This document shows, piece after piece, positions 3,927 to 22,572 of a stretch of DNA of 64,000 nt. This stretch comes from an uncultured Gammaproteobacteria bacterium (GTDB lineage Bacteria > Pseudomonadota > Gammaproteobacteria > Steroidobacterales > Steroidobacteraceae), in the NCBI GenBank assembly GCA_963710595.1, contig CAVQAZ010000007.1:36926-100925 (forward strand), written 5' to 3'. The notes beneath the pieces are model-generated. The model saw nothing but the letters and a program-made list of their open reading frames with translations, was not told the origin of the DNA and did not search any database. Position 1 is the first letter of the stretch. Each line of letters begins with the position of its first letter. Made by a program: the position numbers and the translations under genes.

Positions 3927-3952
3927 GCAATGTCGTCCTTGATCACTGGGCA

Positions 3953-5230: not shown

Positions 5231-5256
5231 CTTTAGCCAACCTCCGTGCGACCTGG

Positions 5257-5366: not shown

Positions 5367-5484
5367 CTACGACAGAAGCTGCTGCTGTATTCAGCCGGTC
5401 GTTGCGTAAACACGCTACTGGATAAATCCACTCGCCTGGCGTGCACGGCTGATGTCGCCGTCTCGGACATGCGCACGGTGCGCG

Positions 5485-6234
5485 CTATTTTCCGAACAAC
5501 GCCTTGATCCGATCCTTCACTTCCGGCTGATGAAAAGTCTGCGCGTGCATCGCCACTTCCAGCTCGGTGGCGCGCGGCAGATCCGCCCGCAGGCCGGCGA
5601 CCATGTGCGCCTTGAGCGTCACCAATGACTGTCGCGGCTTGTCCGCCAGATTCCTCGCGAGCTGATATGCGTACGGCAGTACCTCGCTCCGCGGCAGCAC
5701 CGGAAACGCAATTCCCCGCTCCGCCAGCTGCGCGCCCCGGTAGGTCTCGGCTGTCATCAACAGCTCCTGCGCCAGCGGCAACCCCAGCTTTTCCCGCAGC
5801 ACCAGCGTGGACCCGAAACCCGGCGTGAAGCCGTACTTCATGAAGTTCGTCGTGTAGACACTTTCTCGGCTGAAGATGATGAAGTCGGCAAACAAGCCGA
5901 ACACGAAGCCGCCGCCGATGCCATGACCCTGCATTGCCGCGATCACCGGCACCTCGCAGGCCAGCGGCAGGTTGTAAATGGGATAGTCGGTGAACTTTCC
6001 CTGACCATCGGACAACCCCAGCAACGCCTCCTGCGTGCCACCGGAGCAGAAATACGAGTCGTAGCCGGTGACGATCACGACTTTGCAGTGCTGGTCCCCG
6101 GCGATATTGGCAAAGGCATCCCACAGGCCCGCGCAGATCTCCGCAGAGAATGTGTTCTTGTGGACGCGATCTTCCAATGTGACCTGGACGATGGCCGGCT
6201 CGATTCGCTCGTGACGTACCGCCGGGGTGACCAT
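5485..6234 (-). CDS. pksI: Beta-branching enoyl-CoA hydratase-like decarboxylase ECH2 (PksI-like)
   Basis: Crotonase-fold motifs (EDRVHKNTFS, AMQGHGIGGG, FMKYGFTPGFG); last gene of the HMGS-ECH1-ECH2 run. Confidence 0.9.
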   Translation of the reverse strand: MVTPAVRHERIEPAIVQVTLEDRVHKNTFSAEICAGLWDAFANIAGDQHCKVVIVTGYDSYFCSGGTQEALLGLSDGQGKFTDYPIYNLPLACEVPVIAAMQGHGIGGGFVFGLFADFIIFSRESVYTTNFMKYGFTPGFGSTLVLREKLGLPLAQELLMTAETYRGAQLAERGIAFPVLPRSEVLPYAYQLARNLADKPRQSLVTLKAHMVAGLRADLPRATELEVAMHAQTFHQPEVKDRIKALFGK

Positions 6235-6235
6235 G

Positions 6236-7033
6236 CTAGGTGCGCTCCCAAGGAAACAGACCCGTCTCTACGTAGCGTGTGATGCTGGCGATGTTGGCAG
6301 GATCGCGGAACACTTCCTTGTTGGCCGCGATGGCCGCCGGCCGGTCGGCGACGACCGAGACGCCGAGCCCGTTCACGAGACGTTTGTAGCGCGCGATGGC
6401 CGTTCTGTTGAGCCGTCTCAGCCGGAGCAGATGCTTGCGCAACAGCGCTTCGCTGTTGGCGCCGCTCGCATCCACCAGTCCCCACTGCAGCGCCTGTGAT
6501 ACATCGATGGCATGCGTCATTGCCGTCAGGTAATGCGCCTTCTGAAAACCGACGCGGCGAATCAGGAACGGCAACACGCACGCCGGCACTAGTCCGAACA
6601 GCAGCTCCGAGAGACTGAACACCGCCGTCTCATCCGCGATCACAATGTCGCTCGCAGCGACGAAGCCCATCCCGCCCGCGTTCGTCTTGCCTCGCACATG
6701 CGAGACCACGAAGAACGGTGCCGTCGTCAGACGCAGCCACAAGTCATAAAGAGGTTCCGGTGATGGCTCAGACGCCGGCTGGCCGCCGCCGTTGTTGGCA
6801 ACCGCACGCATTTCCCCGAAATCGGCGCCGAAGCAGAACACGTCCGGCAGGCCCTCCAGCACCAGCACGGTGACGGGCTCATCACAACAACGCTCGATCA
6901 CGGCGGCGCACTCACTGATCAGCTGGCCGTTGATCGTGTTGTTCGCCTCGGGACGATGCAACTGCACGAAGCAGATGCTGTCCTGGAACCGCACCTGCAG
7001 CGTTTCGTAGGTCGTCTGTCGAACCGTGGCCAT
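6236..7033 (-). CDS. pksH: Beta-branching enoyl-CoA hydratase/dehydratase ECH1 (PksH-like)
   Basis: Start reset to ATG 7033 (MATVRQTTYETL), which overlaps the HMGS stop (TGATG). Motifs HRPEANNTIN, FCFGADF, LSELLFGLVPA. Confidence 0.9.
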   Translation of the reverse strand: MATVRQTTYETLQVRFQDSICFVQLHRPEANNTINGQLISECAAVIERCCDEPVTVLVLEGLPDVFCFGADFGEMRAVANNGGGQPASEPSPEPLYDLWLRLTTAPFFVVSHVRGKTNAGGMGFVAASDIVIADETAVFSLSELLFGLVPACVLPFLIRRVGFQKAHYLTAMTHAIDVSQALQWGLVDASGANSEALLRKHLLRLRRLNRTAIARYKRLVNGLGVSVVADRPAAIAANKEVFRDPANIASITRYVETGLFPWERT

Positions 7034-8295
7034 CACGACAACCACTCGTACTCGCGATGGAACTCTTTGATCTCGCGCAGTACCAGCCGCGGTCTGTTCT
7101 TGCCGGCGCGCGCGACCTCGCGACACACCTCGTCTTCCACCTTGACGTTGCGGGTGCCGAACCGCAGCTGGCTGTTGCTCATCAACAAGGAGTCGTATTG
7201 CTGCATCGACAAGGGATAGCGTTCATCGAGTTGCTGCCCGATCTTGCGCCGACGTAGCGCCAACTGCCCCTCCTGATGCGCCACGCCGCTATAAAACTCC
7301 GAGCAGCAGCCCGAGCCGTAGGAGAAACATCCGATGCGGTTGGCGGATTGAAAGTTGCCGTTGTCGATGGTGCTCGCCAGCGACAGCAATGAGGTCGCCC
7401 CCATGATGTTGCCCACCCTGCGGCAATAGGTGAGTCCCGGCACCACGCGCTGGTGAAAATCCGCTTCGATCTCCGCGGGCTTCGCCGCCGTCCACTTGCG
7501 CATCATCGAGCGGTGAGCGCCCTTGATCATGCCGCCGAACGGAGTGTGAAACGCCAGGTACTGAAATGACGTGGCGTAGTCGACGTCACTGACTCTCTTG
7601 CTGTATTCCTGGAACGCATTCTCACAACAGTCGAGGTACGACAGCAGCGACAAATCCGCATCGCCCGCCTCCATGTCCGGCGCCGGACGGCAGGTGTCCA
7701 TCACCTCGTAGCCGTAGTAGCCATTTGCACCGACATCCATTTCGAACACCAGCGGCCGACTGCTAACGAGCACCGCGACAGCGCCGGCGCCCGCACTGGG
7801 CTCCGCGAATGACCAGTCTTGCGTCAACGCGTCGCCGCCCTCGGCGACCATGAAGCGCGAAATATCCGTCGCGACCACCAATGCCTTGGCACCGGGAGAG
7901 ACTTGCGACAGGATGAAGTTCACCGCCATCTGCAAACCCGCAGTTCCGGAGTAGCAGGCTTGTTTTATTTCGAACAGGCGGCAATTGCGATTCAGTTGCA
8001 AGTGGCGGTGCAGGTAAGTGCTGATGGACTTGCCGAAGTCGATGCCGGACTCCGAGCACGCAATGAGCAGCTCGATCCGATCTTTGTCGGCCGGCGGCAG
8101 CGCATCGAGGATGGGCTTCGCGGCATTGACGCCGAAGGTGATCGGGTCCTCATCGGGCAGGGCCACCGTCTTCTCATCCATCAACAGGTTATTGAACCGA
8201 ATCGTGTCCAGTCCGCGATGCTCAGCCAGCTGCCTGACGTTCAAGCAGGCCACGCCGCCGAACACATTCATTGCCTCGATGCCCACGAGTGCCAT
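7033..8295 (-). CDS. pksG: HMG-CoA synthase-like beta-branching enzyme (PksG-like)
   Basis: EIKQACYSGT (catalytic Cys), FHTPFGGM, FSYGSGCCSEFYSG. Confidence 0.93.
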   Translation of the reverse strand: MALVGIEAMNVFGGVACLNVRQLAEHRGLDTIRFNNLLMDEKTVALPDEDPITFGVNAAKPILDALPPADKDRIELLIACSESGIDFGKSISTYLHRHLQLNRNCRLFEIKQACYSGTAGLQMAVNFILSQVSPGAKALVVATDISRFMVAEGGDALTQDWSFAEPSAGAGAVAVLVSSRPLVFEMDVGANGYYGYEVMDTCRPAPDMEAGDADLSLLSYLDCCENAFQEYSKRVSDVDYATSFQYLAFHTPFGGMIKGAHRSMMRKWTAAKPAEIEADFHQRVVPGLTYCRRVGNIMGATSLLSLASTIDNGNFQSANRIGCFSYGSGCCSEFYSGVAHQEGQLALRRRKIGQQLDERYPLSMQQYDSLLMSNSQLRFGTRNVKVEDEVCREVARAGKNRPRLVLREIKEFHREYEWLS

Positions 8296-8661
8296 GCAAA
8301 CGTACTCCAGGTTAGCTGCCGCGTTGCCGACGCAACGTGATGTTCATTGCACTGAATCCCGTGTTGCACGTCAATGCATGCCGGAGCAACGATGCGGCAG
8401 CGCCCGGGCTTACTCAGCGCGAGTCGGCGCCAGGCGCTCTGCTGAATGTTTATTTGCCGACGACACTACAGAGTTTCCAGTGCGGCACGCGCCCATCGGC
8501 CACCGCGAGCAGGAGCACGCAGGCCAGCGGCGTGCTCACCCAAGCCGAATGCATTTTTTGGCGGCCGGAGGCGGGGCCGCGCCGAGCGGCGCGACCGGAC
8601 AGGGCGTCAGACAAACCCGGCGTTACTCGGGATCGTCATGCGGATGCCGGTGATCCCCGTT

Positions 8662-8910
8662 TCACGAGCCGCGCAGTCTTTCGTGCAGCAGATCGGTCAA
8701 TTCGCCGAGATTGCGGGCGCCGAACAGCTCGACGCGGGGAATACGCAGCGCCAGCGACTCCAGCGTCATCGTGACGATCTCCGCACGATCGACTGAATTG
8801 GCACCGAGTGCGGCCAGTTGATCGGAAGGTTTGAAAGAATGGTCCTGCAGCTGTGGCAGCACTTCGCGCGCGTGACCCACGATGACGGCGAATAATGCTT
8901 CTTTGTTCAT
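8662..8910 (-). CDS. acpK: Donor acyl carrier protein for beta-branching (AcpK-like), copy 1
   Basis: 82 aa from MNKEALF; LGANSVDRAEI motif. Confidence 0.88.
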   Translation of the reverse strand: MNKEALFAVIVGHAREVLPQLQDHSFKPSDQLAALGANSVDRAEIVTMTLESLALRIPRVELFGARNLGELTDLLHERLRGS

Positions 8911-8946
8911 GATGCTTCGGCTCCTTGCTGATGCCATGGAATCTCA

Positions 8947-10332
8947 TCAGGTCCACTGACGCGACTGCACAGTGGTTCGTGTACTCGCCTGCGTGGCCAC
9001 CCACTGGTTCAAGTGCTCGGCGGTTCCCTCCAGCAGTCGTCGCGCGATATCCGCCACGTAGCGCTTCTGCCAAGGAAATATTTCCGTGTTTCGCACCCAT
9101 TGATTGAACGCGCCCAGGGCCGGCCCGCAATGGATCTGGTAATCGACTCTCTGCTCCCGCTCACCGCGCAGGGCGAGACGGGTCGAGTGAACGAAATACC
9201 ATTTGAATATCAATGCCATCTTGCGCTTGGGGGACACTTCGATGTCCGCGTTCGGGCGCCGCCTGGCGAGGTAACTGCGCGTTTCCTTCCACACCTCATC
9301 GATGCTGCGCCGGAAATATTTCTCCTCGATCTGACGCAGGATGGCGGGATCGATTTCACCCAGCGAGCCGTGCCGCTGATAGAGCTCGTACAGCCTGTTT
9401 GCCCGGGCCGGGAACAACAACCCTCGTTTCACCACCTGCACCTTGGCACCGAGCTCGAACAGGTCGCCGGCGGGCGCATAGGCAGTGTCTTGCACGTTAA
9501 TCTGTTGCAGTAGCGCCTTCACATCGTCGCTGGTGCCTGCTTCCCGGGTACATTGATTGATCGAACCGGTGAGGATGAAGTCCGCGCCCATCATGAAGGC
9601 GGCAGCCGCCGCATGCGGAGTACCGATGCCGCCGGCGGCACCGACACGAATGCGCCTTTCATAGCCGTGCCGCTCCATCATTTGATCCCGCAACATCATC
9701 ATCGCGGGGAGCAAAGCGTAAGCCACGCCTTGATCCGTATGGCCGCCGGAATCGGCCTCCACGCAAATATCATCGGCAACGGGAATGGCGTGAGCAAGCT
9801 CGGCTTGCAGCTCGGAGATCTGACCGGACGCGAGCAGCGCCTTCACGAGGCTCTGCGGTGCCGGCTGCATGAACGCCGCGGCAATTTCCGGACGCGATAC
9901 TTTGGCGAGCATGCGATGAGCCGAATGCAGCTCGCCCGTCTGGCTGCGACCGATGCCTTGCAAGCGGTAGCGAACCAGGCTCGGTGTGATATTCATGAAG
10001 GCCGCGGCCTCGACATGACGGATGCCATGCGCCAGGTAGAGATCGACGGTGCGCTCCTCCAGGTCCGGCCGCTCGGGATTCGCCAAAAGATTCATTCCAT
10101 AGGGTTCACCGTGCGTGAGCTCCGCTTGGATATGACGGATGGCTGCTGCAACGGCGTCCAACTCGAGCCCACCCGTGCCCAGAAATCCCATCAGCCCCGC
10201 TTTGCCCAGCGCAACGACCATCTCCCTGGATGCGATTCCCTTGTACATGGCGCCAGCCAGATACGCGTACCTGAGCCCATAGTCGGCCTTGAATTGCGCG
10301 TCTCCGAGTGAAGCTGCCGTAATCTGGCGCAT
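8947..10332 (-). CDS. PfaD/FabK-family trans-acting enoyl reductase
   Basis: YLAGAMYKGIAS, VEADSGGHTD, GAAGGIGTP and YQIHCGPALGAFNQW motifs; no AT domain fused. Confidence 0.88.
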   Translation of the reverse strand: MRQITAASLGDAQFKADYGLRYAYLAGAMYKGIASREMVVALGKAGLMGFLGTGGLELDAVAAAIRHIQAELTHGEPYGMNLLANPERPDLEERTVDLYLAHGIRHVEAAAFMNITPSLVRYRLQGIGRSQTGELHSAHRMLAKVSRPEIAAAFMQPAPQSLVKALLASGQISELQAELAHAIPVADDICVEADSGGHTDQGVAYALLPAMMMLRDQMMERHGYERRIRVGAAGGIGTPHAAAAAFMMGADFILTGSINQCTREAGTSDDVKALLQQINVQDTAYAPAGDLFELGAKVQVVKRGLLFPARANRLYELYQRHGSLGEIDPAILRQIEEKYFRRSIDEVWKETRSYLARRRPNADIEVSPKRKMALIFKWYFVHSTRLALRGEREQRVDYQIHCGPALGAFNQWVRNTEIFPWQKRYVADIARRLLEGTAEHLNQWVATQASTRTTVQSRQWT

Positions 10333-10409
10333 GCTTCGTCCTTTGCTGAGCGAGCGGCCCGCGTGGCGACGACCTGCCGGTGCGGAAACTGCGTGCTGCG
10401 CGTCCAGTG

Positions 10410-11651
10410 CTATGTGGAAGTCTCGTCCGCCAGTCCCCAGCGTTCCAATCTCCGAACCAGCAAGCCCAGGAAATGATTTGCGCGTGCGCCGTCCACGACA
10501 CGATGATCCAGCGTGAGGGTCACGTAGCAGCGTGGCCGCACCACGATGCGATCCTCACCTAGCTCGCTAATCACGACGGCGCGCTTCTCCAGCTTGCCCA
10601 CGCCCAGGATGGCCGATTGCGGCTGCTTGATGACGATGGGCGCAGCCAGCAGGCTGCCGCTGACGCCGTGATTGGAAATCGTGAATGTGCCGCCGCTCAC
10701 GTCCGCCGGTAGCAGCCGGCCCTCACGCGCACACCTCACTAACCTGCTCAGTTCACTCGCGATTGCGAACAGATCCAGCGTCCGCACATTGCGGATCACC
10801 GGCACGAGGAGTCCCCTGCCCGCCACGGCCGTGGCAACGCCGATGTCCACTGTGTCGTGCATCAACAGGGCATCCGGTAGCCAGCGACTGTTGATCTCCG
10901 GCACTTCGGTCAGCGCGGCGGCACTCGCTGCGAGAAAATAGGCGGTGAGCGTCAGTGCGGCACCCCGCCGTTCGAACTGCGCACGATGCTTTTCTCGATG
11001 TGCCAACACTGCGGTCAGATCGACTTCGAACACGGTGGTCACATGAGGCGCCGTGCGTAGCAAACTCTCGACCATGAGATCAGCAGTCCGCAGCCGCGTC
11101 GTCGAGTGTGGGACGCGCCGACTAGCCGGCTGCGCCTGTGCGTTCGCGACCGCAGTCTCGGGGCTCGCGCTACGATTCGCTACATATGCGAGCACATCAG
11201 CAACCGTCACTCTCCCACCCACTCCGCTGCCGCGAAGCTCCTCGGAATCGATCGAATGTTCCTTGAGCAGACGGCGAACCGCGGGGCTGTGACGTGCCGA
11301 ATTCGGCATCCCCAGGTGAGCGGACCACGCAGCGGCGCGACTCGATCCAGCAGGCTTTGCGGCACTTTCGTCGAGTGCGCCGCTCGCCAGCTGCGCCGTT
11401 TGCATCTGCTCGGTCTGAATGAACGCCAGCACCTCTCCCGGCACAATGTCTTCACGTGCCTGCTTGAGCACCCGCTGCAGCACCCCGCTGGCCGGTGCCG
11501 GAATCTCTACGACAACCTTGTCAGTCTCCACTTCGATCAGCGGTTCGTCCCGGGTGACGGGTTCGCCCACCATCTTCAGCCAGCGCTGCAACTGCGAGCG
11601 CGTCCCTTCGGACTGCTCACACGGCGCGCACACTGCAATCATCGCTGTCAT
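10410..11651 (-). CDS. 2-oxoacid dehydrogenase E2 (dihydrolipoamide acyltransferase)
   Basis: Start reset to ATG 11651. Lipoyl motif EVETDKV, binding domain HSPAVRRL, catalytic LDHRVVDG. Confidence 0.88.
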   Translation of the reverse strand: MTAMIAVCAPCEQSEGTRSQLQRWLKMVGEPVTRDEPLIEVETDKVVVEIPAPASGVLQRVLKQAREDIVPGEVLAFIQTEQMQTAQLASGALDESAAKPAGSSRAAAWSAHLGMPNSARHSPAVRRLLKEHSIDSEELRGSGVGGRVTVADVLAYVANRSASPETAVANAQAQPASRRVPHSTTRLRTADLMVESLLRTAPHVTTVFEVDLTAVLAHREKHRAQFERRGAALTLTAYFLAASAAALTEVPEINSRWLPDALLMHDTVDIGVATAVAGRGLLVPVIRNVRTLDLFAIASELSRLVRCAREGRLLPADVSGGTFTISNHGVSGSLLAAPIVIKQPQSAILGVGKLEKRAVVISELGEDRIVVRPRCYVTLTLDHRVVDGARANHFLGLLVRRLERWGLADETST

Positions 11652-11655
11652 TGAT

Positions 11656-13755
11656 TCAAAAGCTCGCCGTTTGTTCGATGGCCTGCATGATGCGCGCGAC
11701 GCTGGGCACCACCGAATCGAGCAGCACGGGGCTGTGCGGGCTCGGCACATCCGGCATGGTGATGCGGTCGATGGGTGCATCGAGATCGAAGAACACTTCC
11801 TTGGTGAGCGTGGCCGCAATCTCGGCGCCGAAGCCGGCCGTGAGATTGTCCTCGTGCACGATGAGGCAACGGCGCGTCTTGCGAACCGAAGCGATCACCG
11901 CATCACGGTCCCACGGAATCAGCGTACGAAGGTCGAGCACTTCCACATCGAGCTCGGACTGATAAGCCGCGGCTTCGCAGCGCTCGACCATGGCGCCCCA
12001 GGAAACAATGGTCAGTTGAGTACCGACTTGTGCGATCTTTGCTTGCCCGAAGGGCACGATAAAGTGATCTCCCGGATAGGGACGCCGTGCCCAGGCGGCA
12101 TCCAGCATGGCGCGGTGCTCGAAAAAAATCGTCGGATCATTGCCGCGCAATGCCGAGCGCAACAGGCCGACAGCATCCTCGGCGTTCGACGGCATGGCCA
12201 CGCGCCAACCGATGGCGTGCGCGAACTGCACTTCGTTGCTCTGGCTGTGCCAGGGATCGCCGGACTTGGAAAAGCCGCCCGGCATGCGCACTACCATGGG
12301 TGCGGCAAAGCGGTTGGCGGTGCGCCATCGCAGCGTGCCGCAATCGTTGAGCTGCTCGGTCGCCGGATCGGCGTACTTGCGGAACTGAATCTCCGGCACT
12401 GGCATCAGACCGGCTAACGCCATGCCCACCGCCCGGCCGATGATTCCTTCTTCGGACAGGCTGGTATCGAACACGCGCGCTTCGCCGAATTTTTCCTGCA
12501 GTCCCACAGTGGCGGCGTGCACGCCGCCTTTACGGCCCACATCTTCGCCGAACACCACGACGCGGGGATTGACGGCAAGCTCATGCTCGAGCGTGCGGCG
12601 GATCGCTGTGAGCATGTTTATTCGCGGCCCACTGGGTTGCGGCACCGATACTCCCAGCAACGGCTGCACGCCGTCGGCCAGCATTCCGCCCTGCTCCTGC
12701 ACTTCCACCGAACCATCGGGGAGATGCTCACTGAATGAAAAGCGTACGGTGGTCTGGGCATCCGGTTCCGCGCGCTGCTCCACTCGAGCCAGCGCCTGCT
12801 CCACTTCCTCGCTAGCACGCTGCTGCAACAGTGCCCATGCCTCGGCCGATATCACCCGCGGCACCAACTGCTCACGCAATCTCGGAAGCGGATCGCGCTC
12901 CAGTTCGGCGGCGATCTCCTGTGGCGATCTATATGCCTGGGTGTCCTGACCCGAATGGCCAGCGAGGCGCGGAACCTGGATGCGCAGCAGCGCCGGCCCC
13001 TGCCCGCGCCGCACGACTTCGACAGCATGCTGAATCTGCGAGGCAGTGCCGCTGGGATCGCGGCTATCAGCTTCAAGGATGCGCAGGTTACGAAACGAAC
13101 CGAGATTGGCGGCGATGTTGCCGCCGGGAGTCTGCAGGTCCGACTTCACCGAAATGCCATAGCCGTTGTCTTCGATGAAGAACAGCACCGGCAGCCGCTG
13201 AGTTGCCGCAATGGTGAGCGCCGCCCAGAAGCCGTTGGTGGCCACCAACCCGTCGCCGCCATGGGCCACCGCGATGCTGTCCGCCCACTGGGACTCCTGC
13301 AGCGTGTTCGTTCTATAAACAATCGCCTGGGCCCAGCCAACCACCTGCGTGTATTGCGCGCCCACGCCACCACAGGCGGGCAACACGCAGGCGCCATCCC
13401 GTCGTGGCAAGTTGAATACGACGCCGATGTCGCGACCCTGGCTGACGCTGCCCACGCGCATCATGGTCGAAGCCAGCGCATCCTCCGTAGTCAGTCCCAA
13501 CGAAAGCAGCAGAGGACGCGAGCGGTAGTAGACACCCACACCGTCGCGCGCGCCGGTGAGCATCTGGCCGAGGATTGCCTGCGTCACGTCGTGACCACGC
13601 GCAGTGAATTGATAAATAATCTTGCGTTCCGGCAGCAGCCGCGATTCTTCGAGCGCGTCCAGCGCGCGAGAGAGCAGCACCGAATACACGACCTGGGACC
13701 AATCAATCCGCGTGGAGCCGCTGGGCGCCGCACTTTCCAGAACCACTGCCGACAT
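11656..13755 (-). CDS. Fused E1 alpha/beta ThDP-dependent 2-oxoacid dehydrogenase (branched-chain type)
   Basis: Start MSAVVL (ATG 13755, GAGGTG upstream). ThDP motif GDG...EDN; beta-part motifs FGEDVG, FDTSLSEEGIIG, PEIQF. Confidence 0.88.
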   Translation of the reverse strand: MSAVVLESAAPSGSTRIDWSQVVYSVLLSRALDALEESRLLPERKIIYQFTARGHDVTQAILGQMLTGARDGVGVYYRSRPLLLSLGLTTEDALASTMMRVGSVSQGRDIGVVFNLPRRDGACVLPACGGVGAQYTQVVGWAQAIVYRTNTLQESQWADSIAVAHGGDGLVATNGFWAALTIAATQRLPVLFFIEDNGYGISVKSDLQTPGGNIAANLGSFRNLRILEADSRDPSGTASQIQHAVEVVRRGQGPALLRIQVPRLAGHSGQDTQAYRSPQEIAAELERDPLPRLREQLVPRVISAEAWALLQQRASEEVEQALARVEQRAEPDAQTTVRFSFSEHLPDGSVEVQEQGGMLADGVQPLLGVSVPQPSGPRINMLTAIRRTLEHELAVNPRVVVFGEDVGRKGGVHAATVGLQEKFGEARVFDTSLSEEGIIGRAVGMALAGLMPVPEIQFRKYADPATEQLNDCGTLRWRTANRFAAPMVVRMPGGFSKSGDPWHSQSNEVQFAHAIGWRVAMPSNAEDAVGLLRSALRGNDPTIFFEHRAMLDAAWARRPYPGDHFIVPFGQAKIAQVGTQLTIVSWGAMVERCEAAAYQSELDVEVLDLRTLIPWDRDAVIASVRKTRRCLIVHEDNLTAGFGAEIAATLTKEVFFDLDAPIDRITMPDVPSPHSPVLLDSVVPSVARIMQAIEQTASF

Positions 13756-13942
13756 TGCTTCACCTCGTGTTCGAAGGCGCAACGAGCTCCGAGCTTAATC
13801 AGCTACCTCGGAGTGAAGCGCTGGATTTCTCCATACCACCGCAGCGGCCGGTCACCCAAAAACCCGACAGCAACAGCACCAACACTGCCTCGATCAATAC
13901 CGATGCGTCCAGCTCGCGCCGGTGTCAAAGCAACAAGCCTAG

Positions 13943-14052
13943 GGAAGCTCTGATTAATCGACTGCCCTGAGCTCAGCAAGCTTGCAACTGACTGAAATGC
14001 TTCATCGATCGAAGTTGATATGCGCGACGCATGGCAATTGATCAGAGATTCC
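13943..14052. mobile_element. 110-bp MITE-like inverted-repeat element, copy 2
   Basis: Same terminal inverted repeats as copy 1, flanked by a perfect CTAG direct repeat (13939-13942 and 14053-14056). The right CTAG contains the stop codon of the ParB-like gene. Confidence 0.65.
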
Positions 14053-14943
14053 CTAGGATGCCGTGTCGATATTTCTGCGGCGGTGCGCCGCCTGCGTCGT
14101 GATGTTTGCATGCAGCACCGACTGGCCATCGAGAATCTTCGCCACTTCGTGCTGAATGCGCTCCTGAACTTCATCGGTGGCCACTTCTATGGGCAGGGTC
14201 ATGGCTATCAAACTGCGGTGCTGCCTGATCCGCAGGATGGGTACTCCGCCCTCGCTCCTGATGACCCGTTCGGCAGCCTGTAATTTCTTTTTGCGGCCCC
14301 GGCGCGCCGGGGTCAGCAGCTGGCGAAAGACCTCACCGGCGGCCGGACGCGGCCTCGCTCCAATCTCGCGCGCGCGTTGAATAATGGACTTTCTGCGACC
14401 CGGGTCTTGAATGGCGTCGTCGATATCCAGGCCCCATCGTTCACAAATGTCGGTACCGCTTTCGAACGCGCCGACGATGACGCTCGGCAGACGCGCGAGC
14501 CTGATCAGGCGCGACACCTGCGATGTGGAAATCTTCAATGCCTTGGCGATGTCCTCCTGCGAGCTGAAGTGGCCGGCCCGCAGCCAACGCGCATAACACA
14601 TGCCTCGCTCGTAAGGGCTCAGGTCCTTGCGTTTGTGATTCTCCGTATCGAGCGCGATCACCGCCTCCTTGTCCGACAGATCGCGCAATTCGGCCAGCAG
14701 CGGTCGGTTCAGAAAACGCGCGACGAACAGCCGGCGCGCGCCATAAATCAACTCGATGTCGTGCTCCGGATCGTTCTGCAAGCGCCGCCCGAGCACAGGA
14801 ATAAGCTGCCCGTGTTCAAGAAAGCTCTTGATCTCATCCTCGCAGGTTGCTTCATTGACGCTGCTGTCGATCCGATCGTGGCCCTTCCAGAGGCGACAGC
14901 GCACAGGGTTCACCGAAACAATCGTCCGATTCTCATCGACCAT
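14053..14943 (-). CDS. ParB/RepB/Spo0J-like protein 1
   Basis: GQLIPVLGR, YGARRLFVA and ENHKRKDL motifs of the ParB N-terminal domain, then HTH SQEDIAKALKISTSQVSRL. Confidence 0.85.
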   Translation of the reverse strand: MVDENRTIVSVNPVRCRLWKGHDRIDSSVNEATCEDEIKSFLEHGQLIPVLGRRLQNDPEHDIELIYGARRLFVARFLNRPLLAELRDLSDKEAVIALDTENHKRKDLSPYERGMCYARWLRAGHFSSQEDIAKALKISTSQVSRLIRLARLPSVIVGAFESGTDICERWGLDIDDAIQDPGRRKSIIQRAREIGARPRPAAGEVFRQLLTPARRGRKKKLQAAERVIRSEGGVPILRIRQHRSLIAMTLPIEVATDEVQERIQHEVAKILDGQSVLHANITTQAAHRRRNIDTAS

Positions 14944-15099
14944 AGATCCTCACTCTCTATTCCATGGAGCATGGATTCTCGCCCCGCGATGTGACGTCGG
15001 CGTTGCAACAAACCACACTGGCATGTGCGGCTGCTGGACACGCCGCAGGTGCTCGCGGCGCGCATTCGCGTCACGAGCACCTGATGCTTGCTACATCTT

Positions 15100-15987
15100 T
15101 CAGGTTTGTAAACCGGAGTAGTAGGACGACGATGCGTTGGGGTGATCGATATATCGGGCTGTGCGCCGCGTGCTCAGGTCCCGCACGATGCGCAGGACGG
15201 CATCCTCAATTCGCTCGAGCGCTTCTTCTGATACTCTGTCGGCGGGAAACAGCAGAGTGAACGCGCGAGACTGGCGCCTGACTCGAAACAGCGCGCTTCC
15301 GCTCGCACCGGTGACGGTTTCTTCGCACGATCTGCCGCTGCGCCGTCGATCCCACGCGACGCTCTGCAGGAGTCTTTGGTAAATCTCGAGCACCGGAGGG
15401 CGTGGAGTCATCCCGCGGATTTCATTCGCGACGCGGCTGAGCAGCGGGCGCTTCTCAACGTCTTCCCACATCTCCACCAACTCCAGTCCCCATCTTTCAC
15501 GCATGTCGGCCGGATTGGCGAATGCGCTCACGATGCTGCTCGGCAGCTGGGCGAGTCGCAGTAGTCTCGACACTTGCGAGTTGGAGAGATGTAAGGCACG
15601 CGCCAAATCTTCCCGTGACTTGAAGTATTCCGCGCTCAACCATCGAGCGCAGCTGCGCCCCCGCTCATAGGGGCTGATGTCCCGGCGCTGGCGGTTCTCG
15701 ATATCCATCGCGATGATCCCGTCGCGATCGGAGATGTCCTGCAGCTCAACCGCGAGCGGCATGTTGAGATGCCGTGCAACGAACAGGCGACGCGCACCAT
15801 AGATCAGCTCGACCTCATACACGGGATCGCCTTTCAAGCGCCGCCCCCGAGTTGGAATCAGTTGCCCCTCCTTGAGGAAGCTTTCGATCTCGACCTTGCA
15901 GGTTTCCTCGGTGATCTCCGTGTCAAGCCGCTCGTGCAAATCCCACATACGGCATCGAAACGGGTTCACCAGACTGAGCTCGCTCAT
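15100..15987 (-). CDS. ParB/RepB/Spo0J-like protein 2
   Basis: Start reset to MSELSLVNPF (AAGGAG upstream). GQLIPTRGR, YGARRLFVA, ENRQRRDI, then HTH SREDLARALHLSNSQVSRL. Confidence 0.85.
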   Translation of the reverse strand: MSELSLVNPFRCRMWDLHERLDTEITEETCKVEIESFLKEGQLIPTRGRRLKGDPVYEVELIYGARRLFVARHLNMPLAVELQDISDRDGIIAMDIENRQRRDISPYERGRSCARWLSAEYFKSREDLARALHLSNSQVSRLLRLAQLPSSIVSAFANPADMRERWGLELVEMWEDVEKRPLLSRVANEIRGMTPRPPVLEIYQRLLQSVAWDRRRSGRSCEETVTGASGSALFRVRRQSRAFTLLFPADRVSEEALERIEDAVLRIVRDLSTRRTARYIDHPNASSSYYSGLQT

Positions 15988-16331
15988 TTCAAACTCTCCT
16001 TTTTCGCAACCCCGGCCGCCTCCCGCAGCCGAGCCTTCCGCAGCATGCTGTGTTTTGACCCCCGCTCTCGCCACTCGCTCACTTCAGCTTTTTTTAAACA
16101 AGCAATGCGCCGCCTGCCCTACGCCGACATTCAGAAACATCTGCTCATGCGCATAGCGACATCTTTTTGTTCCATGCACACCGTCAAATCCGCAACAATG
16201 CATGAAGGCGGTCAACACCCATCCGGGCACCGAATCCAACATCTTGGCACGATACGTCTGCCACGCGTACGACACGCGAGACCCGGGACTGAATCGTCGC
16301 ACCCCATTGGATAGATCCGCCGTCACTGTGA

Positions 16332-17573
16332 CTAGTCATCAATGGACACGTTGCGCAGACAAATCGCGGTGTTGATGCCGCCAAAACCTATGCTCAGGTT
16401 CAGGGCGTTGCGAATCGTGCGCGCCAGCGGCTCTTGCCGCACCCAATTCAGCTCCGGCTTGAGGGGTTCCTGCAGATTTCGACTGGGATGCAGGAACCGG
16501 CTCCTCATCTGCAGCAACGTGGCGATGATCTCAACGGTGCCGGCGGCGCTGAATCCATGGCCCACGATCGACTTGGTCGCGTTGATATGCGCATGCGACA
16601 GCCCGGCGGCCATGATCGCGCTCGCCTCAATCTCATCGCCCATCCAGGAGCCGGTGCCGTGTGGATTGACATAGTCGATGTCGCGGGGCTCGAGCCCTGC
16701 GCGTCTCAAGGCGTTGTCAATCACCCTGATTTCACCGGCGAGCGACGGATCGGGGTTGCGATGTGCATCCATCACCGTCGCTGAGCCGGTCAGCACCGCG
16801 TACGGCTTGACGCGATTCCTGCTGACGGCCGACAGGCGTTCCACCACCACGGCGCCACAGCACTCACCAAAAATGAAGCCATCCCGTCCCTTGTCGAAAG
16901 GCCGGCAAGCCAACTCCGGACGATCCGCGTAGCGATCGCTTCCCATCGCACCTGTCGCGCGCAGAGCGTGGCACTCCCAGTACGACAGATCCATGAGGGC
17001 GCCGACGGCGATACAGACGTCTACTTGTTGTGATTGCACGGCTTGGACGGCCTGCAGTATGGATAGCTGACCACTTGCGCATGCCGCACCGACGGTGTAC
17101 GCGAAGCCGCGTATGTTGAACTGTTCCGTGCACCAACCGCACAGATCACTATCCAGGAAGGCAACCCCATAGCTGGGCCGCAGGAAGCGCATGCGCGCTG
17201 AGTGCTCCTCATGAATTCGCGTGAGCTCGCGCTGTTGACAGTTCGACCCGCCGATAATGAGGCCGATTCGATACGGATCGACGGAGTCGAGGTTGGCGTC
17301 CTGCCAAGCCTCATGCACAGTCATCATCGCCGCCTGCGCGGACAGCGAAGCTGAGCGCTGCGCGCGTGATGAAAGCGCTGCCGGCAACTTGAGCTCCGGC
17401 AACTCGGCGCCGATGAATGCGGAATCCTTCTGCCTTCCGGGACGCTGCATGACGCGAAAAGCATGGCGCCCTTCCTTGAGCGCCGCTTCGAATGCTCGAC
17501 GGCCCTGACCCACCGCGGTGAGTACACCGACGCCAGTGATCGCTACATCAGTAGAAGCGTCTTTCCTCTCCAT
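16332..17573 (-). CDS. Stand-alone KS of the beta-branching (PksF-like) family, retaining the active-site Cys
   Basis: YTVGAACASGQ (TGC at 17079-17081), NPHGTGS, KSIVGH; clear paralog of 19860..21074. Confidence 0.88.
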   Translation of the reverse strand: MERKDASTDVAITGVGVLTAVGQGRRAFEAALKEGRHAFRVMQRPGRQKDSAFIGAELPELKLPAALSSRAQRSASLSAQAAMMTVHEAWQDANLDSVDPYRIGLIIGGSNCQQRELTRIHEEHSARMRFLRPSYGVAFLDSDLCGWCTEQFNIRGFAYTVGAACASGQLSILQAVQAVQSQQVDVCIAVGALMDLSYWECHALRATGAMGSDRYADRPELACRPFDKGRDGFIFGECCGAVVVERLSAVSRNRVKPYAVLTGSATVMDAHRNPDPSLAGEIRVIDNALRRAGLEPRDIDYVNPHGTGSWMGDEIEASAIMAAGLSHAHINATKSIVGHGFSAAGTVEIIATLLQMRSRFLHPSRNLQEPLKPELNWVRQEPLARTIRNALNLSIGFGGINTAICLRNVSIDD

Positions 17574-17716
17574 GGGTACATCCTTGCTGCGTGCGGAGTC
17601 ATCTAACGATGCCGCCCGGCGCGACGTTCATGCAACGCATTTCGAGAACGGGATACGCGACGGTCGATGCTTGCTCGCAACGACCGATCGCGTATCCGCT
17701 GCCGATGCTCGAAGTC

Positions 17717-18907
17717 CTACTCCAGAACTTTCGACACCACACCCGCACCCACGGTCTTGCCGCCTTCGCGAATCGCAAAACGCGATCCGTCCTCCATCGC
17801 GATCGGCGCGATCAACTCGACCGCCATCTTGACGTTGTCGCCGGGCATCACCATTTCCACGCCCTCCGGCAGCTCCACCGCGCCGGTTACATCCGTGGTA
17901 CGGAAGTAGAACTGCGGGCGATAGCCTTTGAAGAACGGCGTGTGGCGCCCACCCTCCTCCTTGGTCAGCACATACACTTCGGCCTCGAACTTCGTGTGCG
18001 GCTTGATCGAACCGGGCTTCGCCAGCACCTGCCCACGCTCGACCTCTTCGCGTTTGGTACCGCGCAGAAGTACGCCCACGTTGTCGCCCGCCTGACCTTC
18101 ATCCAGCAGCTTGCGGAACATCTCAACGCCCGTGCATATGGTCTTCGTCGTGGGCCGCAACCCCACGATCTCCACCTCGTCGTTCACCTTGAGAATGCCG
18201 CGCTCGATACGTCCGGTGGCAACCGTGCCCCGCCCGGAAATGGAGAACACATCCTCAACGTGCATTAGAAACGGCTTGTCGATCTCACGCGGCGGCGTGG
18301 GAATATAACGGTCCATTTCCTGCACCAGCTTGACCACCGAGGGCACGCCGATTTCGCTCGTGTCGCCTTCCAGCGCCTTGAGCGCCGAGCCCTTCACGAT
18401 CGGCGTCGCGTCGCCAGGGAAGTCGTACTTCGACAGCAGCTCGCGCACTTCCATATCCACCAGTTCCAGCAGCTCCGCGTCGTCCACCATGTCCGCCTTG
18501 TTCAGGTACACCACGATGTACGGCACGCCCACCTGGCGAGCCAGCAAAATGTGCTCGCGCGTCTGCGGCATCGGGCCGTCAGCTGCGGAAACCACTAGAA
18601 TCGCTCCATCCATCTGCGCGGCGCCCGTGATCATGTTCTTCACATAGTCGGCATGCCCCGGACAGTCGACATGCGCGTAGTGGCGGTTCGCACTCTGGTA
18701 CTCCACGTGCGCCGTAGCGATCGTGATCCCGCGCGCTTTCTCTTCCGGCGCCTTGTCGATCTGATCGTAGGCCATGAATGTACCGCCGTGCGTCTCGGCC
18801 ATGACCTTGGTCAAGGCCGCGGTCAACGTCGTCTTGCCGTGATCCACGTGTCCGATCGTGCCGACGTTCACGTGCGGCTTGGTGCGCTCAAACTTGTTCT
18901 TCGCCAT
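17717..18907 (-). CDS. tuf: Elongation factor Tu, paralog outside its normal genomic context
   Basis: 396 aa, [28 protein letters not shown]; full length and no frameshift. No fusA/rps or tRNA/secE neighbours. Confidence 0.98.
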
Positions 18908-18971
18908 GGTCGTTTCCTATTTGAGATAAGGGGTAATCGTTAGAGGTAGAGGCTCGAGCCGCGAGCCGTCG

Positions 18972-19415
18972 TCATTGCACATTTCCCGTTTCGACCACCT
19001 GGGAAATGAGCTCGAGCAGACTGGCGCTCCACCGCGGGCCGCCGAACACAACCACCTTCAATTCGTTGCGCTCCTGGTCATACATCGACTCCAATCGCAC
19101 TGGCTCCTCGTCGCGTCGCTCCGCTCTCACGGCGCCCATCAGCACCGTGGTCAGCCGATCCGCGGCGCCGCGGCTGAGCGCTTCGATCCGCACCACGGTG
19201 GACACAGAGACGCGTCCGTGACTGCTGACCGCGTTCGGATCGAACTCCACCACCGGACGGCCCAGCAAAGCTTCGATATCTTCCTTCGCGATTCGGTATT
19301 GCTTGCCAATGCGCTTGGCCCGCAACCGCCCGACTCTCACGTAGTTGCGAACCGTTTTGACATGCAACTTCAAGAGATCGGCGACTTGATCAATGGAATA
19401 CAATTCCTGTGCCAT
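18972..19415 (-). CDS. Excisionase/MerR-like (HTH_17-type) DNA-binding regulator with C-terminal domain
   Basis: MAQELYSIDQVADLLKLHVKTVRNYVRVGRLRAKRIGKQYRI; alternative ATG at 19430. Confidence 0.8.
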   Translation of the reverse strand: MAQELYSIDQVADLLKLHVKTVRNYVRVGRLRAKRIGKQYRIAKEDIEALLGRPVVEFDPNAVSSHGRVSVSTVVRIEALSRGAADRLTTVLMGAVRAERRDEEPVRLESMYDQERNELKVVVFGGPRWSASLLELISQVVETGNVQ

Positions 19416-19445
19416 CGTACCAACCCTCATTGGGATGAAAACGGA

Positions 19446-19496
19446 CCTATTTATACCTATCGCTCCCTATTAGTCAATAGCACTGGGAGCGATAGG
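19446..19496 (-). promoter_or_regulatory. Sigma70-like promoter with overlapping operator repeats for the HTH-tuf unit
   Basis: Minus strand TTGACT (19477-19472), 16 nt, TATAAA (19455-19450). Perfect 12-bp inverted repeat CCTATCGCTCCC (19456-19467) / GGGAGCGATAGG (19485-19496). CCTAT at 19446, 19456 and 19466. Confidence 0.7.
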
Positions 19497-19624
19497 GAAT
19501 TTAAAGGAGTTGACGCTGGACGATTGCGGGGACGTGGCCGCTTGGAAAGAGCGTGGTCAAGAGGCGGTCCCCGCGTGCTCCAGACTGCAGGCCGCGCTGT
19601 GTGTTCAGCGGCGCCCCGCGGGGC

Positions 19625-19843
19625 TCACGGCCTTACTTTGGAGGCGGCCAGGAGTGCGAAGCGCACATTGGCCCGCATCCAGCGAATCAGAACAAGTTTG
19701 TCGATGCCGAGTCGCTCCGCGAGCTCAGCCACCGTGCATGCGCAGCCATCAGGGAGATCGCGCACAGCTGCCTCTATCGACGCTTGCGGAGGATCGGGAA
19801 CTGGCTCATTTCCAGCCAATGTATCCATGGATGCCATGTACAC
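19625..19843 (-). CDS. Small hypothetical protein with possible HTH
   Basis: Directly after the KS stop, AAGGGAG upstream of ATG 19837; TVAELAERLGIDKLVLIRW looks HTH-like. Confidence 0.4.
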   Translation of the reverse strand: MYMASMDTLAGNEPVPDPPQASIEAAVRDLPDGCACTVAELAERLGIDKLVLIRWMRANVRFALLAASKVRP

Positions 19844-19859
19844 GTACTCCCTTACGGTA

Positions 19860-21074
19860 CTAGTACTTTTGTAGACACAGCGCTGTGTTTATTCCACCAA
19901 ATCCCATGCTGAGCGTTAGTGCATTCACCATCGGATGCGCGACGGGTTGCTCTCGCACCCAGTTGAACGATGGATCAATGGGGTGATCGAGGTTGCGCGT
20001 GGCATGTAATCGGCCCGCCCGCATCTGCAGTAGCGTCGCGATCACTTCGACAGCGCCGGCAGCCGACAACCCATGCCCGATGATCGACTTGGTCGCATTC
20101 AAACGAGCCTGCGTGAGCTGTGTGGCACGCAGCGCGCTCAGCTCGGTTTCATCACCCACGACCGATCCCGTCCCGTGCGGATTGACGTAGTCGATGTCCT
20201 TCGACGCGCATCCCGCTCGCCGCAGCGCGCTGACGATCACCTTGATCTCCCCTTCCAACGAGGGATTCGGGTTGCGATTCGCATCGATGGCGACACCCCA
20301 CCCGGAGACGCGCGCGTAGGGAGTCATGCCGGAGCGCGGGCGCGCGTCGGCCCTCTCGATCACGACAGCGCCACAACACTCTCCATAAATGAAACCGTCA
20401 TGGTCCCGATCGAAAGGCCGCGAAGCGTGCTGCGGCTCACTCGCGTAGCGGTCTGAACCCATGGCGCCGAGGGAGCGAAATCCCTGGCATTCCCAATGAG
20501 ACAGATCCATCAGCGCTCCGAGAGCGATGCAGATATCGACCTGCTCGCACAACACCGCTTGCATCGCCTGGATGATGGCGAGTTGCCCGCTCGCCGAAGC
20601 TCCCCCCACGGTGTAGGCCAGCCCCTGGATGCCGAACTGCTCGGTGCACAAACCGCACAGGTCCGTGTCCATGAACGACAGGCCGTAGGTCGGACGCAGG
20701 AACTGCGTTCGTTCCGAGTACGCCTCGTATGTTTGCACCTGGCTGCGCTGCTGAAGGTTCGAACCGCCGATGATCAATCCGATCCGCGTCGGGTCCGCAT
20801 CACTCAGGCGCGCGTCACTCCATGCCTCGTGCAGCGTGACCAACCCCGCCTGCGCTGTGAGCGACGCATTTCTGAGGTGCTGCGGCGAAATGCCCGGAGG
20901 CATGCCCATTGACGGAATCTCCGCGCCGAGAAAGTTCGAAGCTTTTTGCCTTCCCGGCCGCTGCATGACACCGAATGCATTGGGCGCTTCGAACAGCGCT
21001 CGCGAGAACGCCTGCGCTCCTTGCCCGATCGCCGAGGTGACGCCGACGCCGGTAATAATCACTTCAGGCCGCAT
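19860..21074 (-). CDS. pksF: Beta-branching decarboxylating KS (Cys to Ser), PksF-like
   Basis: YTVGGASASGQ (TCG at 20595-20597), NPHGTGS, KSIIGH. Start at ATG 21074 or GTG 21086, overlapping the ACP end. Confidence 0.9.
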   Translation of the reverse strand: MRPEVIITGVGVTSAIGQGAQAFSRALFEAPNAFGVMQRPGRQKASNFLGAEIPSMGMPPGISPQHLRNASLTAQAGLVTLHEAWSDARLSDADPTRIGLIIGGSNLQQRSQVQTYEAYSERTQFLRPTYGLSFMDTDLCGLCTEQFGIQGLAYTVGGASASGQLAIIQAMQAVLCEQVDICIALGALMDLSHWECQGFRSLGAMGSDRYASEPQHASRPFDRDHDGFIYGECCGAVVIERADARPRSGMTPYARVSGWGVAIDANRNPNPSLEGEIKVIVSALRRAGCASKDIDYVNPHGTGSVVGDETELSALRATQLTQARLNATKSIIGHGLSAAGAVEVIATLLQMRAGRLHATRNLDHPIDPSFNWVREQPVAHPMVNALTLSMGFGGINTALCLQKY

Positions 21075-21312
21075 GGAACTTTTCACGCAGCAGATCCGCC
21101 AGTCCGCCGATGCTTTCCGGCCCGAACGCCTCGTGGCGGGGCATGTCGAGCGACAGCTCCCCTAGCACCAGCGTGATGATCTCGGCGCGATCGACGGAGT
21201 CGGCGCCGAGCGACTGCAGCCGGTCGCTGTCGATGAAAGCATGATATTGCAAATCCGGCACGACCTCCTGGGTGTACCGGACAATCAGCTCGAAGATGTT
21301 TTGTCTGTTCAT
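21064..21312 (-). CDS. acpK: Donor acyl carrier protein (AcpK-like), copy 2
   Basis: 82 aa from MNRQNIFELI; LGADSVDRAEI motif. Confidence 0.88.
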   Translation of the reverse strand: MNRQNIFELIVRYTQEVVPDLQYHAFIDSDRLQSLGADSVDRAEIITLVLGELSLDMPRHEAFGPESIGGLADLLREKFHAA

Positions 21313-21374
21313 GGCTGTGCTCAAGCTCCGGAAGACCACTGTTGATACTCACGCCCAGTTCGAGCCCCTCGGGA

Positions 21375-22277
21375 CTAGTTCCCGGATGTGCGCAGTTCTC
21401 GAGCCGCCGCCGGTTCCGCATCCTGCCGGATCTGCTGCACCAGACGCGTCAGCACGTTTCCCGGACCAATCTCCTTGAACTCCGTCACGCCGCGCGCGAG
21501 CAAAAAGCGAATGGTTCGTGTCCATTGCACCGGGCTCTTGATCTGATCGGCGAGCCCGGCCTTGATCGCGGACGAGTGATCGCTCGGATAGGGCGCAGCG
21601 TTCACGTTTGCAATCACCGGGACCCGCGCCGCTGAGAAAGGTATCGGCGCGATGAATTCATTGAACGTTTGCGCCACATCGCTCATGTACCGGGAGTGAA
21701 ACGCGGCGCTCACCTGCAACGGCATGTACATGCTCGCGCCGGCTTCCTCGAACAACGGAGCCGAGCGTTGGATGTCTGGCACCGGCCCGGAGATCACGAT
21801 CTGCTTGGGCGCATTGAAGTTCGCCACGTCAACGCCGCTCAGGCGATTCTCCGCGAGCACTCGCGCGACCTGGTCGGCATCCAACCCGACTACCGCCGCC
21901 ATGGCGCCGTTTCTCATTCGCGCCATGAGCTCGCCGCGTTTGATCACCAGGCGCAACCCGGTGAGAAAATCGAAGACTCCCGCCACGAGCAACGCGTTGT
22001 ATTCGCCGAGACTGTGTCCCGCGACGTAGCTGGGATGCGCGCCCTGACTCAATGCTTTGTAGTAGTACAGCGCGTTGACCACATAGAGACTGGGCTGAGT
22101 ATGTTGAGTCTGCTTCAGCTTGTTGTCCGGATCTTCCAGACAGAGTTTGCGCATCGAGTATCCCAACAGCTCATCGACGCTCTTCTCCACAGAGGTGAAC
22201 TCGCGCACCTCGTCAAACAATTGCTGACCCATGCCTCGATATTGAGAACCCTGGCCCGGGAACAAAAACGCGATCAC
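21375..22277 (-). CDS. Trans-acting malonyl-CoA:ACP acyltransferase (FabD/PksC-like)
   Basis: GTG 22277 after AAAGGAGG; FPGQGSQ, GHSLGE, AFHS (malonyl-type). Confidence 0.92.
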   Translation of the reverse strand: MIAFLFPGQGSQYRGMGQQLFDEVREFTSVEKSVDELLGYSMRKLCLEDPDNKLKQTQHTQPSLYVVNALYYYKALSQGAHPSYVAGHSLGEYNALLVAGVFDFLTGLRLVIKRGELMARMRNGAMAAVVGLDADQVARVLAENRLSGVDVANFNAPKQIVISGPVPDIQRSAPLFEEAGASMYMPLQVSAAFHSRYMSDVAQTFNEFIAPIPFSAARVPVIANVNAAPYPSDHSSAIKAGLADQIKSPVQWTRTIRFLLARGVTEFKEIGPGNVLTRLVQQIRQDAEPAAARELRTSGN

Positions 22278-22572
22278 TTCACACCTCCTTTGGTTGCGGC
22301 GCGCATGTTGCTGCATTTCCGGTCACACGTCCCGCGCCTTCCTTGTCCTGCAATGTTTGTACTCGAGTTACTCAATGTCGACCAGTGGAACTGCCTGGTC
22401 GAGCCGCAACGGCTCGCGATCGTTGTGATCACATGCCAAGCACACGGGCCGCAACGTGACTCGAATGTCCTCTTGCAAAGTTACATGGAAACAAAACCGA
22501 TCTATTGGGAATCGCCAGCCCCATCGCTCCCGGCTAAGGACATTGGCGATGCGACGAGACAATCACAGTGCA

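Follow-up and report, generated by a model that had tools for sequence, protein, structure and literature searches.

Tandem SopB/RepB-type ParB-like genes without ParA in a trans-acyltransferase polyketide synthase cluster: likely cluster-dedicated DNA-binding regulators

VirB, BisD and KorB are clamps of the ParB fold that use cytidine triphosphate (CTP) and regulate genes (PMC12704722); gene-regulating switches of this kind have so far come from these few mobile-element cases. Cluster-situated ParB-like regulators have been described only for actinomycetes, where the StrR family comprises activators of biosynthetic gene clusters whose ParB-like domain has not been given a role. Here, two adjacent genes coding for ParB-like (ParBL) proteins, ParBL_1 and ParBL_2, were analysed, which are located inside a trans-acyltransferase (trans-AT) polyketide synthase (PKS) cluster of an uncultured gammaproteobacterium of the Steroidobacteraceae. 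The whole stretch of DNA under study, termed the window, comprises 64,000 nucleotides and corresponds to C7:36926-100925, with C7 being a 115-kb contig of the 7.9-Mb home assembly (G000; 9 contigs, C1 to C9). The ParBL proteins are best described as the proteobacterial SopB/RepB-type counterpart of the actinomycete cluster-situated ParB-like regulators, the comparison with StrR being made by description.

VirB of Shigella flexneri resembles the ParBL proteins in being a ParA-less regulator derived from a type-Ia plasmid ParB; it relies on a CTP switch, spreading outward from a particular site (PMC10770331). VirB is plasmid-borne and counters H-NS on AT-rich virulence genes, whereas the ParBL genes are chromosomal and reside in biosynthetic operons on DNA that is not AT-rich. 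KorB of plasmid RK2 and BisD of ICEclc, which have the ParB-CTPase fold in common with ParBL, are sliding clamps that act on promoters at a distance (PMC11790492, PMC12409273). Unlike ParBL, KorB also partitions together with IncC and needs clamp-locking KorA or TrbA, and its sequence similarity to ParBL is negligible (E 0.8); BisD acts within an integrative and conjugative element (ICE), and no conserved partner of the KorA/TrbA type was seen at ParBL loci. Noc lacks the ParA-binding motif, as do VirB and BisD (PMC12704722). It is a chromosomal, ParA-independent ParB paralog and a CTP clamp, and differs from ParBL by an N-terminal membrane-targeting helix, many NBS sites around the chromosome, a role in cell division and its occurrence in Firmicutes.

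Members of the StrR family (StrR, Bbr, Tei15*, Dbv4 and NovG) carry a ParB-like N-terminal domain of undefined role and bind defined palindromes as activators (PMC10886168). According to their published description, they have a length of approximately 300-350 aa, a helix-turn-helix (HTH), a helical C-terminus and a location in clusters without ParA (PMC10886168); this layout and the in-cluster location were also found for ParBL, as compared by description only. Differences are that StrR proteins occur in Actinobacteria and are recognised by ParBc plus an AsnC-type HTH, whereas the ParBL proteins have a SopB-type HTH and are nearest to RepB and SopB models, and that paired genes are not described for StrR, whereas ParBL genes are often paired. 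The StrR family also qualifies the first-pass annotation of the window, made from the sequence alone, which had regarded control by a ParB-like clamp as an unrecognised regulatory mode for polyketide clusters. As far as searched, literature linking ParB-like regulators to clusters deals with actinomycetes or fungi only, and a term search in a 2025 survey of the ParB-CTPase fold retrieved no mention of biosynthetic clusters, StrR, polyketides or secondary metabolism.

ParBL_1 and ParBL_2 are full-length members of the ParB/RepB/Spo0J superfamily, combining the ParB-CTPase fold with an HTH. Their scores of 91 and 83 bits against the NCBIfam model TIGR00180 (ParB/RepB/Spo0J) exceeded the cut-off of 58.45, and the next-best NCBIfam matches of both were the plasmid RepB and SopB models. 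Pfam returned only SopB-type and ParB-type HTH domains (PF18090 SoPB_HTH, E 1e-12 and 3e-9), PHROGs labelled both as ParB-like partition protein, and a PDB sequence search led to Spo0J, SopB, Noc and ParB. With 47% identity across 262 residues between the two, the earlier recognition of two ParB-family paralogs with N-terminal domain and HTH was confirmed. The family alignment and a ribosome-binding site (RBS) kept in the orthologs identified the ATG, not an upstream GTG, as the start of ParBL_1.

An AlphaFold2 model of ParBL_1, calculated from a 31-sequence alignment (pLDDT 87.5), revealed an alpha/beta domain at the N-terminus, followed by the HTH in a helical region and, at the C-terminus, by a domain of three strands plus a helix. 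This C-terminal beta-beta-beta-alpha domain (residues 222-278) had high pLDDT in the monomer model and aligned with the C-terminal part of the home genome's own chromosomal ParB. Foldseek searches with the model returned Noc as the top match and, in addition, ParB bound to CDP and CTPgammaS, KorB (TM 0.66-0.69 on target) and Spo0J; the SopB DNA-binding domain superposed on the HTH of the model at an rmsd of 2.1-2.5 A.

Alignment with the chromosomal ParB placed all three boxes of the nucleotide pocket in register, these being the box I-like ESFLKEGQLIP, box II (ELIYGARRLFVA in ParBL vs IIAGERRWRAA in chromosomal ParB) and box III (DIENRQRRDISPYERG vs LIENIQRENLNPLEEA), and the HTH was also kept. 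Both ParBL proteins contain YGARRLFVAR as well as the box III pattern D[IT]EN..R.D.SPYERG; ParBL_1 carries GARR and ENRQR, and box III of ParBL_2 is the variant DTENHKRKD. G64, R66, R67, E97, N98 and R101 were invariant in the 31 aligned family members, and the pocket residues GxRR and ENxxR were kept in seven more members. The clamp parts retained are boxes I-III, the HTH and a predicted C-terminal dimer domain. The N-terminal ParA-contact region is absent: in both ParBL proteins, nothing precedes the first strand of the fold, the RepB and SopB models of NCBIfam are matched only from position 60-77 onward, and the proteins are without the ParA-binding segment (LG-R/K-GL-type) that is represented by the LGRDLSALLG-type N-terminus of the chromosomal ParB.

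A gene for ParA was found neither next to the pair nor on its contig, with PF13614 (ParA) giving zero matches on C7 and no open reading frame (ORF) with the ParA-type Walker-A motif KGGxGK[ST] anywhere on it. Canonical parS was not detected in the window with up to three mismatches. These results agree with the first-pass statement that parA, rep and canonical parS are missing. The possibility raised there of a plasmid with parA or rep just outside the window was not borne out either, as the 14 kb of C7 that follow the window contained no rep or par genes and this far flank codes for tetratricopeptide repeat (TPR) proteins and unknowns. The sole parAB pair of the home genome is chromosomal (C3:958158-959914). 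Across 41 family loci totalling 757 kb, scanning for KGGxGK[ST] ORFs and tblastn did not retrieve ParA. With neither an adjacent ParA gene nor a ParA-stimulating N-terminus, the ParBL pair is not a ParABS partition system.

Type-Ia plasmid ParB proteins (F SopB, P1 ParB and alphaproteobacterial RepB-like) resemble ParBL in the N-terminal RCR-W-LH-R motif, in GxRR without Glu and in ENR.R.DIS, as well as in having a SopB-type HTH and a C-terminal domain in common, and differ in that a ParA gene precedes and that 50-70 N-terminal residues form a ParA-contact region. Even the nearest plasmid proteins do not exceed 35% identity to ParBL. The best of them (34%) comes from a Sphingobium plasmid, where its gene lies behind that of a 401-aa AAA ATPase (ParA) at the plasmid start, and it has approximately 54 additional N-terminal residues; in common with ParBL are the motifs VDPxRCRxWxLHxR, GVRR and DIENRSRKDIS. 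Since a partition ParB of a plasmid thus has GxRR without Glu, this is a trait of the type-Ia-like ParB lineage and not peculiar to cluster-borne proteins; GARR in place of GERR, as noted at first pass, is not supported as a special feature. Judged from these similarities, the ParBL family looks like plasmid ParB that has lost ParA and the ParA-contact region. A plasmid origin of C7 itself was rejected, given the absence of ParA and rep from the contig and the low identity to the best plasmid relatives.

The search for homologs revealed more than 1,100 ParBL relatives at 50-60% identity, most of them metagenomic. Among species-representative genomes, homologs were present in 18 metagenome-assembled genomes of Steroidobacteraceae or unclassified Gammaproteobacteria (contigs of up to 5.45 Mb), and family members sit on Mb-scale chromosomal contigs. 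Five members at four loci were found in the home genome: the pair on C7 inside the PKS cluster; a member at C9:975700, located 1.9 kb upstream of a 100-kb cluster of PKS and nonribosomal peptide synthetase (NRPS) genes and co-directional with it; a member at C1:245311, located upstream of an NRPS cluster of 71 kb at a distance of 5.9 kb; and a member at C2:412273, divergent from a gene row that leads, over a distance of 11 kb, to an NRPS cluster of 36 kb. All four loci are thus 0-12.3 kb from megasynthase cores, at the upstream edge of the cluster or inside. As zones within 12.3 kb of NRPS/PKS cores make up 6.9% of the home genome, the probability of finding 4/4 loci in such zones is p ~2e-5.

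The same linkage was evident outside the home genome. NRPS/PKS genes lay at most 10 kb from the family gene in 7/7 long metagenome contigs, which had been chosen by length alone; the sole condensation (C) domain of a 7.3-Mb genome (G086) is 3.7 kb downstream of its family gene; and in G087, the family gene lies between the ketosynthase (KS) and C domains of the only NRPS/PKS cluster. Loci without NRPS hits still show specialised-metabolism neighbours, namely FkbH, a glycosyltransferase of the macrolide type, a fusion of PabAB-like protein with DUF6002 or a C39 bacteriocin-type exporter. Gene maps of the fetched loci were produced with a crude longest-ORF caller, and NRPS/PKS detection at family loci and in the home-genome scan relied on a small reference set, which makes its negatives weak. 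We conclude that linkage of the core clade to NRPS/PKS clusters is tight; this neighbourhood analysis, suggested at first pass as a check, gave strong enrichment.

Orthologous contigs with approximately 78-83% protein identity have kept the order KS-ParBL_1-ParBL_2-E1-E2-AT-ER-HMGS-ECH-ECH (E1 and E2, 2-oxoacid dehydrogenase components; ER, enoylreductase; HMGS, hydroxymethylglutaryl-CoA synthase; ECH, enoyl-CoA hydratase). Orthologs of ParBL_1 are 78% identical with dN/dS values of 0.16-0.19, those of ParBL_2 80-83% identical with values of 0.13-0.16; both genes are under purifying selection. In the phylogenetic tree, ParBL_1 and ParBL_2 fall into different subclades, with ParBL_2 being sister to the cluster-border copy on C9, which implies that the pair is old and not the result of a recent duplication. 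Pairs also occur elsewhere, in tandem at L008, L034 and L037 and divergent at L015 and L036. L037 is a different trans-AT/NRPS cluster with a halogenase, where a ParBL_1-like gene (60%) is followed by a ParBL_2-like gene (61%) in the order found here. The recurring pairs fit an acting together of ParBL_1 and ParBL_2, as had been proposed at first pass, without proving a heterodimer. The features of the locus are compiled in Table 1.

Table 1. Features of the ParBL locus and the surrounding PKS cluster, given in window positions.
Feature	Position	Strand	Remarks
ParBL_1	15100..15987	minus	295-aa ParB/SopB-like protein; ATG start at 15987
ParBL_2	14053..14943	minus	296-aa paralog of ParBL_1 with matching domain architecture
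Spacer between the ParBL genes	14944..15099	minus	156 bp; mean 75% identity across orthologous loci
Conserved inverted repeat/hairpin	arms 15039-15062 and 15067-15090		inside the 14944-15099 spacer
Upstream region of ParBL_1	15988..16331	minus	poorly conserved apart from the RBS
Palindromic repeat, 110-115 bp, like a miniature inverted-repeat transposable element (MITE)	13937..14052		abuts the ParBL_2 stop; second window copy at 5256-5366
Trans-AT PKS cluster, window portion	1..22316	minus	one-directional; extends over another 36.9 kb of C7
2-oxoacid dehydrogenase E1 (fused alpha/beta, 708 aa) and E2	10410-13782	minus	inside the PKS cluster; kept in ortholog contig L029
Third EF-Tu gene	17717-18907	minus	within the PKS cluster
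HTH_17 (MerR/excisionase-type) protein, 152 aa	18972-19430	minus	between KS gene and EF-Tu

As the family is ParA-less and, in this and related soil bacteria, located at or inside antibiotic-type (NRPS/PKS) clusters, it most likely controls those clusters, and, judged from these sequence data, the ParBL proteins are probably cluster-dedicated DNA-binding regulators of some kind. They would be domesticated descendants of type-Ia (SopB/RepB-like) plasmid ParB that now regulate their own trans-AT PKS cluster, with their paralogs doing likewise for other NRPS/PKS clusters. Dimers, possibly a ParBL_1/ParBL_2 heterodimer, would recognise a cluster-specific site via the SopB-type HTH and would use the box I-III pocket for binding a nucleotide, most probably CTP; the clamp would then close and spread or slide on the very long one-directional operons, modulating transcription like VirB, KorB and BisD. 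The presence of all clamp parts and the invariant pocket residues favour this CTP-gated loading and spreading along the cluster operons, to which, by analogy with these systems, we would give a little less than even weight. The broader proposition that ParA-independent CTP-gated clamps serve as long-range switches for giant NRPS/PKS operons, often as obligate heterodimeric pairs, is more doubtful.

Several observations weigh against control of the clusters by CTP-gated clamps. Retention of the motifs is not proof of CTP binding, and a plasmid ParB-like protein that is independent of CTP has been described (PMC12260392). No common motif emerged from palindrome enumeration and k-mer enrichment covering 39 family genes at 33 loci, the top k-mers near family genes coming only from orthologous intergenic regions that were counted repeatedly, and the half-site of the inverted repeat in the ParBL spacer was found elsewhere in the window 7 times vs 8 times expected by chance. 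The GC content of the PKS cluster equals the genome average; VirB-style relief of silencing on AT-rich DNA is therefore not indicated. The ParBL genes are situated mid-operon without an obvious promoter of their own, with a sigma-70 promoter scan scoring nothing upstream of ParBL_1 or ParBL_2. A distant clade (39-45% identity) occurs in genomes without any NRPS/PKS and shows a kept order of LuxR, LuxI, ParB-like protein, unknown and ABC exporter (L021, L023 and L028, at ~7300-12800 each). Finally, the family is missing from 16 related genomes that do have small NRPS clusters, implying that it is not generally required; true members were present in 2/81 relatives only, which renders the phylogenetic profile uninformative.

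The CTP-independent protein also bears on the explanation that survives best beside the clamp, according to which the ParBL proteins are ordinary operator-binding transcription factors at clusters, with a ParB N-domain that only oligomerises or senses a ligand and with neither clamp nor sliding. The palindrome binding of the StrR-like activators, with their ParB-like domain of undefined role, is in line with such factors, and so is the conserved inverted repeat in the spacer between the ParBL genes, a spacer that is unusually well conserved among orthologous loci. This repeat is the sole candidate left for a ParBL binding site and may represent either an operator or a hairpin in the RNA; it is not common to the pair at L037. 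The invariance of GxRR and ENxxR in 31/31 members is hard to explain with an unused pocket, and the predicted C-terminal dimer domain for ring closure has been retained, which makes ordinary transcription factors somewhat unlikely, if a serious competitor.

The spreading of ParB, Noc and KorB complexes over kilobases and the size of the associated operons (36-100 kb) would also be in accordance with DNA-architecture proteins that coat or insulate giant operons, be it against replication-transcription conflicts or silencing by nucleoid proteins, without pathway-specific control. The finding of one diverged paralog or pair per cluster argues for cluster-specific recognition instead and, together with a PKS cluster that is not AT-rich, renders a purely architectural role improbable.

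Slightly less probable still is a derivation from an integrated plasmid, ICE or genomic island that happens to carry biosynthetic clusters, of which the genes would be a remnant or a maintenance module still at work, the proteins stabilising or segregating DNA, even though the closest characterised relatives of ParBL are the plasmid partition proteins RepB and SopB and biosynthetic clusters are often island-borne. Integrase and transfer genes were, like ParA and rep, not seen in the 41 loci or on C7; the ParA-contact N-terminus is missing; the in-operon position is conserved under purifying selection; and the five home-genome copies are distributed over four loci, each beside a different cluster. 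A ParB/Srx-type nuclease or a factor for self-protection against the cluster product, which would be in keeping with the historical domain name 'ParB-like nuclease' and with the EF-Tu resistance-type gene as a sign of self-protection genes in this cluster, can practically be dismissed given the full DNA-binding ParB architecture, the association of the family with chemically unrelated clusters (NRPS, trans-AT PKS and others) and a search for defence systems that yielded no match beyond weak HTH-level similarity.

If the ParBL proteins are indeed CTP-gated clamps, the ParB-CTPase clamp mechanism would be tied to the control of natural-product pathways, and the unexplained ParB-like domain of the StrR regulators would be suggested to work likewise. 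The ParBL loci would allow long-range control by clamps to be tested directly on operons of 40-100 kb. Co-expression of the cognate ParBL protein or pair in a heterologous host would be a handle to activate silent clusters of uncultured bacteria, and ParBL genes would be a simple genome-mining marker of cluster borders in uncultured, cluster-rich Gammaproteobacteria.

The palindromic repeat that abuts ParBL_2 had been put forward at first pass as a candidate loading site. Genome-wide, 21 full-length and 12 partial copies (~33 in total) were found on seven contigs with 84-97% identity and no obvious enrichment near clusters. The repeat is absent from the orthologous loci, where the spacer between ParBL_2 and E1 measures 63 bp (L029) and 5 bp (L030). 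Being dispersed and missing from the orthologs, it is a MITE-like insertion and not part of the ParBL system, and the assignment as a dedicated loading site was rejected. It provides the final bases and the stop codon of the ParBL_2 ORF, a tail that is variable among orthologs. At L034, an NRPS gene and the ParBL pair are divergent, and the promoter region that separates them (L034:8413-9125) contains two direct repeats of approximately 22 bp (GACGTTGGCATACATGG); from their sequence and position, an operator of that locus is possible.

In the PKS cluster surrounding the ParBL pair, the trans-AT is followed by a KS, the HTH_17 protein, the third EF-Tu copy, a second KS, ParBL_1 and ParBL_2; E1 and E2, the trans-ER, HMGS and two ECHs come next, and L029 shows the same arrangement. 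Then follows the megasynthase of 8989 aa, which starts in the window, and PKSs of 2244 aa and 1870 aa extend up to the contig start. The location of the pair inside a PKS cluster given at first pass was confirmed, the cluster taking up window positions 1-22316; the remaining region of 23-64 kb is not PKS and codes for a methyl-accepting chemotaxis protein, catabolic genes, HipA and giant surface proteins. The latter are two giant ORFs at 45970-61916 on the minus strand, one of 1859 aa with OmpA domains and one of 3456 aa with DUF11, SdrD_B and CARDB-like repeats, and are surface or adhesin-type proteins. Within the cluster, E1 and E2 may supply a starter or extender unit. The HTH_17 protein may act as a further regulator; no counterpart was found at other ParBL-family loci.

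The cluster EF-Tu is 90% identical to two housekeeping copies on C6, with 40 residues differing. None of the differences is at what we take to be the classical positions of kirromycin, pulvomycin and GE2270A resistance (E. coli numbering). The presence of a third copy suggests that the product targets EF-Tu and that this copy confers self-resistance. One of the housekeeping copies (C6:372117-373303) appears to be split by a frameshift near the N-terminus, which is probably an assembly indel. The home genome, at 7.9 Mb, compares with 3.5-3.6 Mb for three genomes placed in the same genus, and at least nine NRPS/PKS regions form part of its additional DNA.

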